This document shows, in pieces, positions 11,535 through 48,592 of a stretch of 50,198 nt of DNA (position 1 is the stretch's first letter; every line of letters starts with the position of its first letter). The stretch covers positions 1 to 50,198 of the forward strand of contig DASSFG010000305.1 in the NCBI GenBank assembly GCA_035694685.1, written 5' to 3'. A program made the position numbers and the translations under genes. The DNA is from Pirellulales bacterium (lineage in GTDB: Bacteria; Planctomycetota; Planctomycetia; Pirellulales; JAICIG01). Below the pieces are notes generated by a model that was not told the origin of the DNA, did no database searches, and saw nothing but the letters and a program-made list of their open reading frames with translations.

Positions 11535-11752
11535 GTAGGGTGGGACAAGCAAGGGGAACGAGCGCCGGCTCGCCATCCCGGAATGTCGAATGACGAATGA
11601 CGAATGACGAAAGAATGACGAAATCCGAATGACGAATGCCTCTGAGCTTGGCCATTCTGGCTTAGTCATTCGGGCTTCTTTCGTCGTTCGTCATTAGACA
11701 TTCGTCATTTCCTGGTGGGCCGGCGCTCGCAAGCTCGCTTGTCCCACCCTAC
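11535..11752. repeat. Composite nested palindrome: family A-like termini enclosing family B (GAATGACGAA) repeats
   Basis: The left arm is GTAGGGTGGGACAAGC...GAGCGCCGGC...(AATGACGAATGACGAATGACGAAAGAATGACG). It is mirrored on the right by ...CGTCATT units...GCCGGCGCTC...GCTTGTCCCACCCTAC. The centre lies near 11640-11650. Confidence 0.9.
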
Positions 11753-36751: not shown

Positions 36752-36830
36752 GTAGGGTGGGACGAGCGAAGCGAGTCCCACCAAACAGCCAGCCGAACAG
36801 GTGGGACTCGCTTCGCTCGTCCCACCCTAC
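36752..36830. repeat. Palindromic repeat family A copy
   Basis: GTAGGGTGGGACGAGCGAAGCGAGTCCCACC (36752-36782) is the exact reverse complement of 36800-36830, with a 17-nt loop. Confidence 0.95.
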
Positions 36831-42225: not shown

Positions 42226-42353
42226 GAATGACGAAGCACGAATGACGGAATGATGAATGAATGACTAAATCCGAAGCACGAAGCACGAAACCGGCCATTT
42301 GTCATTCGTGCTTCGTCATTCTTTCGTCATTCGTCATTCCGTCATTCGTCATT
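42226..42353. repeat. Palindromic repeat family B (GAATGACGAA / TTCGTCATTC units) in the gatA-gatB spacer
   Basis: The left half GAATGACGAAGCACGAATGACGGAATGATGAATGAATGAC is mirrored by GTCATTCGTGCTTCGTCATTCTTTCGTCATTCGTCATTCCGTCATTCGTCATT. A related copy lies inside 11580-11715. Confidence 0.9.
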
Positions 42354-42364
42354 GCTCCGAATGG

Positions 42365-44116
42365 GTGAGAAATTTGAGCCAACGCTACACAACCATCATC
42401 GGCCTGGAAGTCCACGTGCAACTGCTGACGCAGACCAAGCTGTTCTGCGGGTGCAGTACCAGGTTCGGCGCACCGCCGAATACGCAAACATGCCCGATCT
42501 GTACGGGCATGCCCGGCACACTGCCGGTGATGAACCGCCGCGCGTTTGAACTCGCGCTGCGCACGGCGGTGGCCCTCAATTGCCAGATTGCCACGTACAC
42601 CAAGTGGGACCGCAAGCAGTACTATTACCCCGACCTGCCCAAGGGTTATCAGATCAGCCAGTATGATCTGCCGTTCAGCTCTGACGGCTACCTCGAAATC
42701 AGCGACGCTAAGGGCCGCTTCGAGGCCAAACGCGTTGGGATCATCCGCGCACATCTTGAAGAAGACGCCGGCAAGAGCATGCACGACGAGAAGGCCGGCG
42801 CCGCCGATAGCAAGATCGACCTCAACCGGGCCGGTACGCCGCTGTTGGAAATCGTGTCGCAGCCCGACATGCGCTCGCCGGCAGAGGCCGCCGCCTATCT
42901 CGATGAGCTGAAGCTTTTGCTCACCTACCTGGGCGTGAGCGATTGCAACATGCAAGAGGGCAGTTTGCGGGTCGATGCCAACGTAAACCTCCACGTCGAC
43001 CAGCCCGACGGTCACCGCATTCCCACGCCGATCGTCGAGATCAAGAACATGAACAGCTTCCGCGCGGTTGAACGGGCCTTGGCCTACGAGGCCGGGCGGC
43101 AGTACGAAGCGTTTCAGCAGACCGGCCAACGGCTTGGGCAAGTGCCGAAGCAGACCCGCGGTTGGGATGACGTGGAGAGCGTCACGCGTGCCCAGCGGCA
43201 CAAGGAAGAATCGAGCGACTACCGCTATTTTCCCGACCCCGACCTGGTGCCGGTGACCGTGACGGACGAGCAGATTCAATCGGTGCACGAGGGGCTGGGC
43301 GAACTGCCCGCCGACCTGCGTCATCGGCTGGAACTAACCTACAACCTGACTCCCTACGACAGCGACGTGATCGTGAACAAGGGACGTTCTCTGGTTGATT
43401 ATTATCTTCAAGTGGCCGAGTTGTGCGGCGACGGCAAAATAGCCAGCAATTGGGTTACGCAGGACGTGCTCCGCGAGTTGAAAGACCGCAAACTGACGAT
43501 CGAAGAATTTCCGTTGCCTCCCACGGCATTGGCCGATCTGTTGAAAAAGGTGAAGGCCGAGGAGCTCGACACGACTCGCGGCCGCGAGGTGTTTCTGGCG
43601 ATGCTCGATGGCGGCAAATCGGCCGCCGCGGTGATGGCCGAGTTGGGCATCGAAAAAGTCGACGAATCGGCGCTCATCGAGCTTTGCAATGACGTAGTGA
43701 CGTCCAATCGAAAGCTAGTCGATGACATCCGCGGCGGAAAGCCGCAGGCCGCAGGCGCCTTCGTCGGCCACGCCAAGAAAAAGAACCCCAATGTGAATCC
43801 AGCGCGCGTCAGAGAGATTTGCGTACAAGAAACGTACACTTTGATCGCCACTTGGTTTGGCGACGTTGAAGGGCCTTCGGGAATGCCAGTGCCTTGGTGT
43901 CGGTATTTGATTGTAGCGAGCGGTGCCGCGACAGAAGGCACCGGGGTTGCGTCCATCTTGGGTATGACGGAAGACGCTGTTCCCGCCATCGAAAAGGTGA
44001 GGGTTCAATCTGGCGGCGCTCGCGCGGCAATCGCCTCTGCAATAAGCCACGTTGACGAACGCCATCCTGGCCTAAAAAAGCAGGCTGATGCGCCGCGAAA
44101 AGTTGGAGAGTCGTAA
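42365..44116 (+). CDS. gatB: Glutamyl/aspartyl-tRNA amidotransferase subunit B with an atypical ~94-residue C-terminal tail
   Basis: GTG 42365 (or TTG 42374) precedes YTTIIGLEVHVQLLTQTKLFCGCS. The GatB core runs through ...GHAKKKNPNVNPARVREICVQE, but the ORF continues to 44116. The upstream part of ORF 42299.. is a translation of repeat B. Confidence 0.9.
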   Translation: MRNLSQRYTTIIGLEVHVQLLTQTKLFCGCSTRFGAPPNTQTCPICTGMPGTLPVMNRRAFELALRTAVALNCQIATYTKWDRKQYYYPDLPKGYQISQYDLPFSSDGYLEISDAKGRFEAKRVGIIRAHLEEDAGKSMHDEKAGAADSKIDLNRAGTPLLEIVSQPDMRSPAEAAAYLDELKLLLTYLGVSDCNMQEGSLRVDANVNLHVDQPDGHRIPTPIVEIKNMNSFRAVERALAYEAGRQYEAFQQTGQRLGQVPKQTRGWDDVESVTRAQRHKEESSDYRYFPDPDLVPVTVTDEQIQSVHEGLGELPADLRHRLELTYNLTPYDSDVIVNKGRSLVDYYLQVAELCGDGKIASNWVTQDVLRELKDRKLTIEEFPLPPTALADLLKKVKAEELDTTRGREVFLAMLDGGKSAAAVMAELGIEKVDESALIELCNDVVTSNRKLVDDIRGGKPQAAGAFVGHAKKKNPNVNPARVREICVQETYTLIATWFGDVEGPSGMPVPWCRYLIVASGAATEGTGVASILGMTEDAVPAIEKVRVQSGGARAAIASAISHVDERHPGLKKQADAPRKVGES

Positions 44117-44150
44117 TCACAAATCTCACCACGGCCGCCGCACAAGATTA

Positions 44151-44409
44151 ATGCCAGTCGTTTCACAGTTTTACGACATCAGCATCCGGATGTTCTACAA
44201 CGATCATGCACCGCCGCACTTCCACGCCGTGTCGCGGCGACGAATTGTTCGTCGGTATCTCGCCGATTACAATAATGAAGGGCCACGCTCCGAGTCGCGT
44301 GCGCTCCATGGTGCTGGAATGGGCGGCTTTGCACCAGCAAGAGTTGATAGAGAACTGAGACCGGATGCGGCATGGCGATGCGCCAGAGCCGATTCCACCG
44401 CTTGATTAG
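44151..44409 (+). pseudogene. DUF4160-family gene inactivated by a frameshift and a TGA nonsense codon
   Basis: Frame 0 reads MPVVSQFYDISIRMFYNDHAPPHFHAV. The family-like sequence continues in the +1 frame from about 44230: (C)RGDELFVGISPITIMKGHAPSRVRSMVLEWAALHQQELIEN*DRMRHGDAPEPIPPLD. An in-frame TGA at 44356-44358 sits where a Trp (ENW) is expected. Confidence 0.8.
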
Positions 44410-44427
44410 TTCAGGGATGTGTTCTAC

Positions 44428-44730
44428 ATGTTTCCCACGATTCAACGCGTCAGCGTCCGGCCCGATCGGCAACTCCTGCTGCAGTACGCAGATGGCGAAG
44501 AGGTTCTCATCGATTTTCGCCCGGTGACCGAGCGTGGCGGCGTTTTTACCTCGCTGGCGGAGCCAGAATTCTTTGCTCAGGTCAGAATCGGCGATGGGGG
44601 GCGATACATCGAGTGGCCGGGCAACCTCGACTTTTGCGCAGACGCTCTTTGGCAAGAAGGCCGTCATCGCCGCACGGCCGTGGAAGAACCAATCTCTCAA
44701 AGGCATACCGCAGATTGCGACGTGCCGTGA
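44428..44730 (+). CDS. DUF2442-family protein (usual partner of DUF4160)
   Basis: 100 aa. IQRVSVRPDRQLLLQYADGEEVLIDFRPVTERGGVFTSLAEPEFFAQVRIGDGGRYIEWPGNLDFCADALW follows the DUF2442 pattern (v.....y.L.v.F.dG....vD......G.vF..L.d...F..v........i.WP...D..pe.L). Confidence 0.75.
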   Translation: MFPTIQRVSVRPDRQLLLQYADGEEVLIDFRPVTERGGVFTSLAEPEFFAQVRIGDGGRYIEWPGNLDFCADALWQEGRHRRTAVEEPISQRHTADCDVP

Positions 44731-44760
44731 GATTGTTCCCCTTGACGAGGTGCCGTCGGT

Positions 44761-46569
44761 TTAGACTTCGTTCGTGCCTTCCGTGGCGTCGTCGGTGCCG
44801 TTAACGTCGATTGGGGCGGCATTGGCTTCAATACTGGGCACCGTTCCGGGCAAAATCGCTGCAATGTGATCGAGCGCCTTAACAACGTCGAAGTGGATTT
44901 CATCAGGCGTGGCGATGTCAGCGAGCATGTAAAGGTCGCGCTTTGGCAGCGGAAACTGAGTCTTGCCAAGCAAATGGACGAGAAAGTCGCTGGCCTTAAG
45001 ATCCCTGAGCGCCGGAATGTCCTTGAGAAAGTCGATGCCGGCGGGAAAGTTAGCGGCGAACTCGTCGTCGACAAGCTGCTCGTCGGGCTGAGCGAACAAG
45101 GCACCCTCCGCGTGTCGGCTTTGCAGATACCGTTTGATGAGTGTTGGCATGAGCAGATAGTTCTCGATCTCGTACCTCCCCCAGAGGAACATCGCCAGCC
45201 CGGCCGGCGCCGACCACTCCCTGACCTGATCGGCCGCATCGCGATCGACAATCGCCAAACCGCGGATTTGTTCCTGAGCTAACCGCAAGCACTGGAAGTG
45301 CTTCTTGGCTTCGTCGAAGTTGCCCTTGCCGTGCAGCGGAACTACGTACGGAAAACGAAGAAAATCGGCCGCTCGATGTTTCAGGACGTTTGCCCAACTG
45401 TGCAGTAGCTTGTAGTCAGACTCGTCTTCGACATAGAGCACCGCGCGAACGTGGTCTGCCTGAAGCAGGTCAAGCGCGGTCAGACGTCGCAATGCTTCTT
45501 GCACTCGCTGCTTATCTTCTGGCCGTAACAAACGCCGTGGCGACTGGCCAATGAACGAGATGATTTGCTCCGGCTCCTCGCCACTTAACAGCACCTCTGC
45601 GTGAGTCGCCACGATCAACTTGCAACTGCGGCGGTGAGCGACCAGCCGCAGGTGATCGAAGATTTCACGCTGCAAGATGAAATGCAGGTGCGCGTCAGGC
45701 TCGTCAAGCAACAATACCGCCGCCCGACGAGCATGAAAGAATGCCAGCAGCAACAACACCTGGTGAAAACCGCTGCCGGCATTGGCAATGTCCAGCTTCG
45801 GCGGTCGTGAGCTCCGGTCGGCCGGATTCGGCTTGGGGCGGTATTCACAAACGACATAGGGTCGTGCGTCGGAGAACTCCGGCGGGAGCAGTTCACATTG
45901 AAATAACCGCTCAATGTCGCCTTGGAGTTCTTTCCAAGGCGGATTTCCGGGTTTCTTCTCGGACGCCTCCCAGATCTCAAGTAGTAGATTGCGAACGATT
46001 TCGCCCGGCTTCCCCTCGCCGACCAGTTTATGCTGGATGCCAGGGGCGTGACGCGGTTCCTGGGTGCCGATGCCCGAAAATGCGGGCACGTGCACGACGT
46101 TCAGGTCTTGAGCAAATTCCGGTAGCTCATCGATGGGCTGGGGATCATCGGGTGCCATGACGGGCCGGACGTACACCATCTTTTCATTTGCATACATGAA
46201 CTCAATGGTCAGCGATTCTTCGACCCGTCGCCCAACTGCGGAGGTCACTTGGATGTAAATCGGCGCGGATGTCGGCTGTTTCTTGCCGGGGACTTTCCTT
46301 GCGGTATGGCGATTCAGCCAGAGCAGGTTCATTTCTCGCAGCGGCAGAGCGGTGAATTCGTCAAGCACAACGCTGATGCGTCTTTTTCCACCGCTTTTTC
46401 CCCGTTCAGCCAGCCAACGTTTTAGAGCGAGGTGCCAGGCTGCAATCGCGTGCAGCAACGTGGTCTTGCCGGAGTTGTTGGGCCCAGCCAGCAAAATCGA
46501 AGTACCGGTGAGATCGAAGACCTGATCGGCAAATCGCTTAAATCGAACCACGCGGACCCGCGTTATCAC
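44761..46569 (-). CDS. ABC-type (AAA_21/AAA_15-like) ATPase fused to a Toprim/DUF4435-like nuclease domain (OLD-family / fused PARIS AriA-AriB-like)
   Basis: GTG 46569 has a GGAG 7 nt upstream. It carries Walker A GPNNSGKTT (res 29-37), signature-like AGSGFHQ (264-270), Walker B VLLLDEPD (285-292) and ATHAE (321-325). The Toprim-like motifs are LYVEDESDY (378-386), IVDRDA (440-445) and YEIENYLL (466-473). The 145 codons upstream within ORF 44761..47004 are judged non-coding. Confidence 0.75.
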   Translation of the reverse strand: MITRVRVVRFKRFADQVFDLTGTSILLAGPNNSGKTTLLHAIAAWHLALKRWLAERGKSGGKRRISVVLDEFTALPLREMNLLWLNRHTARKVPGKKQPTSAPIYIQVTSAVGRRVEESLTIEFMYANEKMVYVRPVMAPDDPQPIDELPEFAQDLNVVHVPAFSGIGTQEPRHAPGIQHKLVGEGKPGEIVRNLLLEIWEASEKKPGNPPWKELQGDIERLFQCELLPPEFSDARPYVVCEYRPKPNPADRSSRPPKLDIANAGSGFHQVLLLLAFFHARRAAVLLLDEPDAHLHFILQREIFDHLRLVAHRRSCKLIVATHAEVLLSGEEPEQIISFIGQSPRRLLRPEDKQRVQEALRRLTALDLLQADHVRAVLYVEDESDYKLLHSWANVLKHRAADFLRFPYVVPLHGKGNFDEAKKHFQCLRLAQEQIRGLAIVDRDAADQVREWSAPAGLAMFLWGRYEIENYLLMPTLIKRYLQSRHAEGALFAQPDEQLVDDEFAANFPAGIDFLKDIPALRDLKASDFLVHLLGKTQFPLPKRDLYMLADIATPDEIHFDVVKALDHIAAILPGTVPSIEANAAPIDVNGTDDATEGTNEV

Positions 46570-47456
46570 GTGAAAACTCCAAAAAATGGCCGGACCTGAT
46601 GTCGTTCGGTTTGCGCAGGCAGCAGCATGCGATGCTGTCGGCAAACCTGATTTTGTAGAATAGCAGAAAGGCACTAGCCCGTAAGCTGTTAGAGCTAAAG
46701 GATGGCCCTTCCGCAAAGCTCGCCGATAGCGTAGCTGGCTAGTCTTCGGATTATTACCGGTCGGAGCGAAGTTTTTTTGGCCAGCCGTGAACCTTTTGCC
46801 GCCACCTGCGTCGATTACAGTATCTACCGGGTTCATGACCCGGCCGAGGATACTGTTTTTTGGCCAGTCGCGCTTGACGCCAGCCGCCCGGCGTGACAGG
46901 CTTAGCTTTATGGGACGGGCGAAATTGGGTTCGCCCGCCACAGGAAACTTCTCTCCTATCGCGCCATAGCGCAAGAAGGTTGCCATGCGTACCATCCTCC
47001 GCACCTTTACCCGTCAGATTGTGGCTGGCCTCCGCCAGAACCGCCTGGGCGTGGTGGGTACGGTCGAGGTGCGCGGAGATAACTCCTTGCGCATGCGCGA
47101 CTTCTATCAACACGCCCTGCACGCCACGGGCAGGCTGATAACGGCCATCGAACGCCGTTTACAGCCGGCCCTGGCCCTGGCGCTGACAGCCGACCAGGCG
47201 AGTTCAAGCTCGCCCGCCGCACCAGCGCCGCGGTGCTGGCAGCCCAAACCGGCTGCCCAGCAACCTTCCGACAGACGGAGCTAAGCCTCGCCTCCGGGCG
47301 AACGTTCAGCACTGATCTTAGCGAAGGAAGCCGCAGCCGCCGGGCTCGCCGCGGAAAGATCCCCTACAGGCGTCTTTCTGCACCGACCGTAGCGCGAGCG
47401 TTTTTTCACGCGTGTTTCTATTGGCCGAAGTGTGTACGGCCGCAAAGGAGAGACCT

Positions 47457-48035
47457 ATGACCGCCCTGACTGAAGAACTGACGAACGAGAAGCTGGAGCT
47501 GGTGGCCCGGGTGCGCGCCGCCCAGGCGGGCGACCGGAACGCCTTCGGCGAGCTGGCCGAGCAGTTTGAGGGGGCCGTGTTTGCCACGGCCTTGCGCCGG
47601 CTGCGCGACCGAGGCGAGGCCCAAGAGCTGGTGCAGGAGGTGTTCGTGCAGGCGCTGCGCAAGATCGGCCAGCTCCGCGAGCCGGAGTGCTTCGGCGGCT
47701 GGCTGCGGGCCATCACCAACCGGTTGGCCATCAACCGGCAGGTGCGACGCGGCCCGGTGATCACGGCCGAGCGTGAAACGCTCGAGGCCGTCTGCCACGA
47801 CGCCGAAACGCCGCTGGGCAACGTGCTGGCGGCCGAACGCCGGCGTCAGGTGCGGGCCGGTCTGCGCCGGTTGGGCACGCTTGACCGCCAGACGCTGGTG
47901 GCCTTCTACGTGAAGGGCCAGTCGCTCATTGAGATGAGCACGGCGTTCCACTCGCCCGTGGGAACCATCAAGCGTCGGCTCCACGTGGCGCGTAAGCGTC
48001 TGGCGCGGGAGCTCGAGGAGCTGGCCCCGGCGTAG
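47457..48035 (+). CDS. ECF-type RNA polymerase sigma-70 family factor
   Basis: AAGGAGAG precedes the ATG at 47457. Region 2 is FGELAEQFEGAVFATALRRLRDRGEAQELVQEVFVQALRKI...FGGWLRAITNRLAIN. Region 4 is LDRQTLVAFYVKGQSLIEMSTAFHSPVGTIKRRLHVARKRL. Confidence 0.9.
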   Translation: MTALTEELTNEKLELVARVRAAQAGDRNAFGELAEQFEGAVFATALRRLRDRGEAQELVQEVFVQALRKIGQLREPECFGGWLRAITNRLAINRQVRRGPVITAERETLEAVCHDAETPLGNVLAAERRRQVRAGLRRLGTLDRQTLVAFYVKGQSLIEMSTAFHSPVGTIKRRLHVARKRLARELEELAPA

Positions 48036-48083
48036 GAGGTCTGATTTGCCCGGCCGGATCGCAGGTGATCCGGCCGGGCCTGG

Positions 48084-48431
48084 CTACTGGCGGAGTTGGG
48101 CGAGCGCGGCGGCGCGATCGGGATAGACTTGCCAGATCATGTCCAGCTTGCTGGCCCGCAACACGTCGCCACAGACCTCGTTCACCTGGCATAACGCCAG
48201 TTCGCCGTGACGGTCGCGCAAGCGCTTCCACGCCCGAATGAGCAGCCCGAGAAAATTCGAGCCGATAAACGTGGTGAGGTGCATGTCGAGCAGCACTTTG
48301 GGCGGCTCGGCTTTGGCCACCGCCGACAAAAGCTGGTCGCCAAATTCGTTGAGCTTCGCCACGTCGAGCGAATCGTATTGGGCGTCGACCTCGACGACCG
48401 TGATGCCCTCTTGATGGTACACCTTGGCCAT
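48084..48431 (-). CDS. STAS-domain anti-sigma-factor antagonist (SpoIIAA/RsbV-like)
   Basis: 115 aa. VLLDMHLTTFIGSNFLGLLIRAWKRL is the STAS core, with a Ser in the usual phospho-acceptor position (FIGSNFLG). Confidence 0.8.
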   Translation of the reverse strand: MAKVYHQEGITVVEVDAQYDSLDVAKLNEFGDQLLSAVAKAEPPKVLLDMHLTTFIGSNFLGLLIRAWKRLRDRHGELALCQVNEVCGDVLRASKLDMIWQVYPDRAAALAQLRQ

Positions 48432-48482
48432 GTCAAATAAAACTTCAGCGGTTGGTGGTTAAAATACACACAGGGCGTGCGT

Positions 48483-48592
48483 GTAGGTCAGGCTTTCTAG
48501 CCTGACGGAAGTTCGGCTGGAAAGCATGAGCCATGCTGATTTCCGTCAGGCTAAAAGCCTAACCTACCTTGCCGTCAGACCAAAAGCCTGAC
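48483..48592. repeat. Palindromic repeat family D (GTAGGTCAGGCTTT.TAGCCTGAC) between the REC-kinase and STAS genes
   Basis: GTAGGTCAGGCTTTCTAGCCTGACGGAA (48483-48510) is mirrored by TTCCGTCAGGCTAAAAGCCTAACCTAC (48541-48567). A third partial unit GTCAGACCAAAAGCCTGAC lies at 48574-48592. Confidence 0.9.

Follow-up and report, generated by a model that had tools for sequence, protein, structure and literature searches.

What kind of protein is made by a gene that joins an ATP-binding cassette (ABC) ATPase to a Toprim domain in one polypeptide and stands alone on its chromosome segment? The question is raised by a 602-codon gene on a 50,198-bp contig of a metagenome-assembled genome (MAG) of Pirellulales (Planctomycetota); the whole contig was analyzed and is called the window here. 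By our results the window protein belongs to a family of its own in the OLD/PARIS superfamily; this family is closest to fused PARIS and is not verified PARIS. We favor the reading, with a probability of roughly 0.65, that the gene encodes a stand-alone, single-polypeptide defense nuclease of this superfamily, which is gated by its ATPase and acts by abortive infection. The defense function of the window protein, its trigger, its oligomeric state, its autoinhibition and its substrate are what we infer only.

The N-terminal half of the protein was recognized by Pfam as AAA_21 with 56.5 bits and as AAA_15 with 54.8 bits, both past the gathering cutoffs. These scores also pass the thresholds that define the ATPase of PARIS (AAA_15 ≥32 bits or AAA_21 ≥27 bits; the threshold for DUF4435, PF14491, is ≥27 bits; PMC9122126). 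Among the PADLOC models the best one for the whole protein was that of fused PARIS, AriAB (63.6 bits, E 3.7e-18), and this match extended into the Toprim domain. When the C-terminal half was compared with 5027 PADLOC defense models, it matched AriAB (1.5e-5) and AriB (1.8e-4) only. The C-terminal halves of 22 family members behaved similarly; AriAB was matched by 19 of them, AriB by 14 and HEC-04 by one. Of all Pfam families, DUF4435 does best on this half, with ten of the 22 members at E≤0.1 and a best value of 4e-5. The remaining similarities lie in the ATPase half: the matches to the PADLOC GajA model are restricted to the ATPase motifs, the profile matches to OLD chains and AriA cover these motifs only, and NCBIfam gave nothing but sub-threshold matches to them. 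Armadillo-repeat designs, which appeared when a hidden Markov model (HMM) profile of the C-terminal half was compared with PDB sequences, were rejected as spurious.

Next to the sequence profiles stand the predicted structures. The AlphaFold (AF2) model of the full-length protein (pLDDT 82.6, pTM 0.75) found its best Foldseek match in the class 1 OLD of Thermus scotoductus (TsOLD, 6p74; E 5e-13, 658 aligned columns), followed by GajA, likewise over some 660 columns, and by PtuA and retron ATPases. The C-terminal half modeled alone (pLDDT 90.1, pTM 0.84) gave only five high-probability matches, all of them to C-terminal regions of class 2 OLD proteins from Xanthomonas (6njx/6njw/6njv) and Burkholderia (6nk8), with E values of 8e-5 to 4e-3, TM scores of 0.44-0.56 and about 226 columns. 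The class 2 regions (6njx, 6nk8) came closer than 6p74 in this domain-only search. Overall the TM scores are modest (0.30-0.56). Among viral structures (BFVD), Foldseek found no significant match for the C-terminal model; an RloB-like protein appeared at E 0.31.

The two-metal site of Burkholderia OLD (BpOLD) is built by E400/E404, D455/D457 and T506/E508 (PMC6755086). By the order and spacing of the motifs, and not by superposition, E381-x3-D385, D442-x-D444 and E467-x-E469 of the window protein appear to parallel these residues; by analogy with T506/E508, E467 and E469 in YEIENYLL would probably be the second-metal ligands. Conservation was counted over 87 family proteins, which span 33-100% identity. 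E381 is conserved in 81 of them and is Asp in four more; D385 is conserved in 84, D442 in 85 and D444 in 79, while D292 and H294 of the D-loop are each found in 86. The predicted structure, the matches throughout the family and the near-invariance of E381, D385, D442, D444, E467 and E469 together establish the identity of the Toprim domain. A first-pass annotation, made from the letters alone, had proposed a fusion of an ABC ATPase with a Toprim/DUF4435-like half on the basis of seven motifs. All seven are present at the residues and nucleotides that it gave, and with thousands of homologues they are far beyond chance. The fusion itself is borne out by the Pfam scores of the ATPase, by a C-terminal fold that matches OLD only and by the AriAB/AriB profiles. 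The DUF4435 part of the proposal did not hold for this protein, in which the match is not significant. [quoted passage not shown]

The relatives of this protein form a large family. A word-indexed search with the window protein resulted in 4497 proteins at E≤1e-3, and the best 120 of these are mostly full-length, about 550-620 amino acids (aa) long, and come from many phyla. In a scan with one genome per species, at least 487 species carry a relative. A profile of the C-terminal half, run against 1.84 billion cluster representatives (50% identity), found 1375 proteins at E≤1e-3; among the best 150, those with a length of about 540-610 aa are fusions that bear the domain C-terminally, and the shorter sequences mostly resemble gene fragments. 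The family occurs in more than 15 phyla, mostly in uncultured soil and water bacteria. No curated model names it, and the source annotations read 'AAA family ATPase'; this is also the label of an identical protein recorded in NCBI from a Pirellulales MAG. The alignment contains conserved insert motifs which are peculiar to the family, for example DEFTALPLREMNLLW and GEGxPGEIVRNLL. Two proteins of about 255 aa consist of the Toprim and helical half alone (L089 327-1094, P0157; L090 38-814, P0208), and in L089 the strand of this gene carries no ATPase gene upstream of it. They may be stand-alone effector versions; the contigs, at about 1 kb, are too short for judgement.

Where the relatives are encoded strengthens the defense reading, because many of them are embedded in restriction-modification, Hma or BREX operons. 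The neighbors of 80 species-level loci were clustered, with calls from simple open reading frame (ORF) picking and tblastn. At 35 of the 80 loci the family member, here called X, stands in the order Mod-X-Res, with genes that overlap or closely abut; at L046 (3212-10778) they overlap by 4 nt. Mod is a type III methyltransferase of about 900 aa (PADLOC MTase_III, 5e-154), and Res is a restriction endonuclease of the BPTD_3080 family (NCBIfam NF046055, 1036 bits; cutoff 800). The X proteins of this arrangement are mostly 33-38% identical to the window protein; three are closer (L025 43%, L055 50%, L006 51%). Hma systems hold six of the 80 loci (HmaB 1e-116, HmaC 2e-95), two of these beside a HEC-01A ATPase, and three loci adjoin Eco57I-type IIG enzymes. 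All in all, operons of restriction, Hma or BREX systems enclose about half of the sampled loci. In the plasmid pNsp_c of Nostoc sp. ATCC 53789 (L091, 70190-72067) a remote 625-aa end-to-end homologue (26% identity, E 1e-30) is part of a BREX-1 locus, with pglX on one side and pglZ on the other; it scores 110.6 bits with PADLOC AriAB and has no Pfam DUF4435 match. The slot between pglX and pglZ is also occupied by the two-gene PARIS in the StySA BREX of Salmonella (PMC9009780).

The frequent Mod-X-Res order raises the possibility that X is an accessory subunit of restriction-modification, which works only with Mod and Res, and that the solo copy in the window is an inert or decaying orphan. A neighbor-joining tree, to be read as a rough distance tree, contains one large, deep clade which is almost entirely Mod-X-Res with overlapping genes, as this explanation would predict; the solo clade of the window and a group with two type III-embedded members in it are sisters. 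The explanation fits poorly with a second sample, which was centered on Res and comprised 80 metagenome loci (L092-L171), 57 of them informative. X lies directly upstream of Res in 29 of the 57; in 13 the junction is empty, so that Mod abuts Res, and in 15 it holds other inserts. Because the Mod-Res pair also occurs empty or with other inserts, X is optional cargo and not a subunit, and the Mod/Res junction behaves as a variable cargo slot. Some of these loci carry a PD-T4-4_A-like ATPase together with a 152-aa protein that has no Pfam, PADLOC or NCBIfam match.

The solo copies do not look like remnants either. The window gene has no frameshift and no internal stop, and within the solo clade, which keeps every catalytic residue, the ratio of nonsynonymous to synonymous substitution rates (dN/dS) lies at 0.04-0.08, and synonymous sites are close to saturation. 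The gene is intact, selectively maintained and under strong purifying selection. The window and the six closest relative loci (73-86% identity) represent seven different neighborhoods, and the gene is solo in all of them; the relatives lie beside genes for ribosomal proteins, dnaE, a DUF1501 gene, a peroxiredoxin gene, a gene for an MFS transporter and others. These data establish that the gene moves independently of its neighbors and has no conserved partner, and they make an orphaned subunit highly improbable. Strict synteny as a core gene, which would have spoken against the first-pass annotation, is not what they show, and they agree with that annotation in that neither gajB nor any second gene belongs to the gene and that it can be read as a stand-alone defense module. 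The composition of the gene points in the same direction as its mobility: its GC content of 57.1% is among the lowest 2.3% of 1.8-kb windows (the window as a whole has 61.2% and gatA 64.3%), and at third codon positions (GC3) it reaches 66% against 72-87% in the neighbors. The contrast of 50-58% with 75% that had been noted earlier from spot counts is hence real as a dip and much milder in size.

Several observations weigh against a defense nuclease of the OLD/PARIS kind. The window copy is surrounded by gatA/gatB, an ECF sigma factor gene and a gene for a STAS protein, and no defense island, integrase, restriction-modification or phage genes were found near it. The family has no member in 50,697 phage records, and 72,556 plasmids contained three remote matches only. 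An identity of 45-60% across phyla together with a dN/dS of about 0.05 is unusually conservative for an immune gene. With regard to the domains, DUF4435 stayed below its cutoff of 27 bits, as the whole protein scored 11.9 bits (E 0.19) and residues 341-602 alone reached 14.1 bits, and Pfam OLD-like_TOPRIM (PF20469) was unmatched by the window protein and matched by only two of 22 family members, at E 0.04. The HMM profile of the C-terminal half found no AriB or OLD chain among PDB sequences, and no AriA/AriB chain (8UX9, 8V45-49) occurred in the top 50 Foldseek matches of either the full-length or the C-terminal model. Finally, the release of AriB from an AriA scaffold, as in PARIS, cannot apply literally in a fusion.

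The genomic part of these observations would suit a housekeeping ABC ATPase-nuclease in the mould of RecF, RecN or SbcC, which serves DNA repair or chromosome maintenance and is not immune. Very strong purifying selection, high identity across phyla, absence from phages, near absence from plasmids and flanking genes such as gatAB, ribosomal protein genes and dnaE are all in line with this idea, as are weak matches to SMC_N and the RecF N-terminal domain. However, the latter are confined to the P-loop region; moreover, the gene is placed non-syntenically even among the 73-86% relatives, its composition is atypical for the contig, and in about half of the sampled loci it is optional cargo of restriction, Hma or BREX operons. 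We consider a housekeeping role improbable.

Among the known systems, fused PARIS (AriAB), a proposed class 4 OLD, is the nearest. PARIS senses Ocr and acts as a back-up when restriction is inhibited (PMC9122126), and AriB is a tRNase (PMC12409363); single-gene fusions were reported by Rousset et al. 2022 (PMC9122126). We found nothing further on fused PARIS in the literature than the papers cited here. If the window protein were bona fide AriAB, its specific triggers would be anti-restriction proteins, among them Ocr-like DNA mimics, and it would kill by cleaving tRNA-Lys or related tRNAs in the anticodon stem-loop. The two share the order of an AAA_21/AAA_15-type ABC ATPase and a DUF4435-like Toprim in a single polypeptide. 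AriAB is the best-scoring defense model for the whole window protein and for its C-terminal half; save for the one weak HEC-04 match in one member, the C-terminal halves matched no PADLOC models other than AriAB and AriB. Family relatives in BREX and restriction operons also occupy the niche that PARIS has in the BREX of Salmonella. On the other hand, the AriAB score of the window protein is far from that of the BREX-embedded Nostoc fusion (63.6 against 110.6 bits); the DefenseFinder PARIS merge models, which are other models than PADLOC AriAB, use cutoffs of 80 and 20 bits (PMC9122126). The protein lies below the defining DUF4435 threshold, has insert motifs of its own and retrieves by fold the C-terminal regions of OLD at significant values instead of AriA/AriB. 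PARIS is borne by phages and satellites and the present family is not, and the scaffold release of AriB is impossible in a fusion. Bona fide fused PARIS is thus a possible, although rather unlikely, identity. Because the cutoffs of both DUF4435 and OLD-like_TOPRIM were missed and the AriA/AriB structures were not retrieved, we treat the window protein as a member of a separate family. The first-pass annotation had hesitated between OLD and fused PARIS, and rightly so, since the protein stands between them.

The other obvious candidate is a strict class 1 OLD (P2 Old, Thermus scotoductus OLD 6P74, Vibrio cholerae), which would act alone, as a nickase or exonuclease, directly on DNA that is invading or being replicated, and without sensing anti-restriction. 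Class 1 OLD is defined as a single gene, and the review of the OLD proteins leaves the status of single-gene AriAB fusions unresolved (PMC10568477). The window gene is indeed single and has no conserved partner, with the exception of an ORF/sigma factor pair shared with one relative (see below). The best full-length fold match is TsOLD, the C-terminal half matches OLD C-terminal regions only, and the acidic pattern of ExxxD, DxD and ExE looks similar to a two-metal site of the BpOLD type. Against this stand the essentially unmatched OLD-like_TOPRIM family, a similarity to OLD sequences that is limited to the ATPase motifs, sequence profiles that favor DUF4435/AriB, the modest TM scores and a C-terminal half which is nearer to class 2. 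No strictly conserved lysine corresponds to the catalytic one of class 2 OLD (K543 is kept in 52 of 87 family proteins, K525 in 66), and it is typical of guardian modules to be embedded in methylation-based systems, as the relatives are. A strict class 1 OLD is in our view unlikely.

Further comparisons delimit the family. Fusions or pairs of ATPase and Toprim serve as defense effectors in P2 Old, Gabija, retron OLDs and PARIS (PMC10568477). HEC-04 (Payne et al. 2024) is likewise a single ABC ATPase with an OLD-like Toprim; it protects from phages, requires its Walker A and Toprim E/DxD residues (bioRxiv 10.1101/2024.01.29.577857) and was found embedded in the methylation-based Hma, as are some members of the present family. 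It is nevertheless a different family, because its PADLOC model was unmatched by the window protein and gave a single weak match (E 0.0026) among 22 family members. Gabija GajA, a class 2 OLD, shares the ABC ATPase and the Toprim fold, and GajA chains are among the top full-length matches; in contrast to Gabija, no UvrD-like helicase (GajB) or other partner adjoins the window copy, and no helicase lies beside its close relatives. Unlike class 3 or retron OLDs, the window copy has no reverse transcriptase among its neighbors, and Rfam, even at permissive thresholds, gave no match in 43500-48500 and hence no retron or other noncoding RNA partner. PrrC/EcoprrI, an ATPase-nuclease that is encoded within a restriction-modification operon and becomes active once restriction is disabled (bioRxiv 10.1101/2024.01.29.577857), offers a functional analogy only. 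Its embedding resembles that of the relatives; its nuclease domain is different, no homology is claimed, and the window copy, in contrast, is not embedded in a restriction operon.

In the favored reading, that of a stand-alone defense nuclease gated by its ATPase, the N-terminal ABC ATPase would serve as sensor and switch, and the C-terminal two-metal Toprim nuclease with its helical domain as effector. In the uninfected cell the Toprim site would be kept inactive by the ATPase heads, which would probably form a dimer or a higher oligomer. A product of a phage or plasmid would then engage the ATPase at its large and highly conserved insert. Given the places where the relatives are encoded, the most plausible trigger would be an anti-restriction protein or another sign of failed restriction. 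Binding or hydrolysis of ATP would free the nuclease, which would cleave nucleic acid and so abort the infection. On the substrate the pointers diverge, since sequence profiles lean to AriB and the fold search to OLD DNA nucleases. By analogy with OLD and GajA, there is about an even chance that DNA would be nicked or degraded; tRNA, by analogy with AriB, may be the target with a clearly smaller chance, and any other substrate seems quite unlikely. A more specific proposal, which we put forward tentatively and regard as doubtful, is that the family is a separate, unnamed class of the OLD superfamily, in which a Toprim core resembling DUF4435 is joined to a helical domain of the OLD type and to a conserved ATPase insert peculiar to the class. 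Such a class would guard methylation-based restriction and fire on anti-restriction proteins; its members would be cargo of Mod/Res, Hma and type IIG loci, it would have a sister family in BREX, and solo copies would guard in trans. In the window itself, throughout its 50 kb, tblastn found no restriction, Hma or type IIG partners and no methyltransferase.

The features of the gene and of its surroundings are listed in Table 1. The mechanical list of ORFs leaves the same frame open upstream to 47004, which gives a protein of 747 aa with 145 extra codons (46570-47004). The full-length homologues of about 600 aa, however, align from residue 1 with a coverage of 99-100%. On this ground we place the start at 46569 and regard the upstream extension as non-coding. 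GTG start, GGAG, TAA stop and homologue alignments thus agree with the 602-codon gene that was annotated initially. A large insert (about residues 57-260) separates the Walker A helix from the signature motif.

Table 1. Features of the ABC-ATPase/Toprim gene and of its neighborhood in the window; fractions are numbers of the 87 family proteins.
Feature	Position	Strand	Remarks
ABC-ATPase/Toprim fusion gene, complete	44761..46569	-	602 codons; GTG start at 46569, TAA stop at 44761-44763
Ribosome-binding site GGAG	46577..46580	-	7 nt upstream of GTG; direct sequence reading
ABC ATPase half, residues 1-340	45550..46569	-	Pfam AAA_21 6e-15, AAA_15 1.6e-14; AF2 model matches TsOLD, GajA, PtuA
Walker A GPNNSGKTT (K35), residues 29-37	46459..46485	-	K35 kept in 86/87
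ABC signature-like AGSGFHQ, residues 264-270	45760..45780	-	G267 and Q270 each kept in 86/87
Walker B/D-loop VLLLDEPD (D289, E290, D292), residues 285-292	45694..45717	-	kept in 86/87
H-loop ATHAE (H323), residues 321-325	45595..45609	-	kept in 86/87
Linker helices, Toprim fold and C-terminal helical domain, residues 341-575	44845..45549	-	AF2, Foldseek, PADLOC AriAB/AriB
Toprim Glu motif LYVEDESDY (E381, D385; ExxxD), residues 378-386	45412..45438	-	conservation in text
Toprim DxD motif IVDRDA (D442, D444), residues 440-445	45235..45252	-	conservation in text
YEIENYLL (E467, E469, Y471), residues 466-473	45151..45174	-	start of helical domain; kept in 84-85/87
Acidic C-terminal tail, residues 576-602	44764..44844	-	pLDDT 36-66 in both models; poorly conserved in alignment
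DUF2442 gene, intact	44419-44730		
orf99, conserved 99-codon ORF	46985-47284	+	no Pfam match; 67% identical in L004
ECF sigma factor	47412-48035	+	88% identical in L004

A spacer of 415 bp (55% GC) lies between the gene and a 99-codon ORF (orf99). The gene, orf99 and the sigma factor gene form a 3.3-kb colinear block (window 44786-48080), which is common to the window and to the 86% relative L004 and is flanked by unrelated DNA on both sides. We considered orf99 and the ECF sigma factor as components of the system and rejected them, because this block is missing beside the five other close relatives. Downstream of the gene follow DUF2442, DUF4160 and gatB. The DUF4160-like gene (about 44148-44405; region 44088-44730) is split over two frames just after PPHFHA, which is a frameshift or an assembly error. 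The 'decayed TA-like genes' of the first-pass annotation are hence correct for DUF4160, which is frameshifted, and incorrect for DUF2442. A scan for sigma-70-like promoters around the gene gave no matches, and terminator-like matches occurred at background level. Direct or inverted repeats that would suggest a mobile element were not found around the gene, and a tRNA scan of the window found none.

Apart from the gene, the window contains REP/MITE-like intergenic elements at 1558-1634, 11535-11752 and 36752-36830, and also at 42228-42353. Inverted pairs of YGTCCCACCCTAC occur with six matches against 0.01 expected. Inverted arrays of the heptamer TTCGTCA flank one YGTCCCACCCTAC pair, and the same arrays are present between gatA and gatB. 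A 44-nt core of the REP/MITE-like elements is 95-97% identical to three sites in the relative L004.

The window gene adds a member to a known kind of defense nuclease, and the large family to which it belongs is uncharacterised. The gene itself is a credible and not a surprising defense gene, and the finding extends current ideas and does not overturn them. If the favored reading is true, the gene stands for a very widespread defense family, present in at least 487 species, for which no tool has a specific model. It then also bears on the question in the OLD literature of whether single-gene fusions of ATPase and Toprim behave as class 1 OLD does or as PARIS does. Among the by-products, the Mod/Res junction of BPTD_3080-type operons is of most use; it looks like a natural cargo slot and could be mined for further defense genes.

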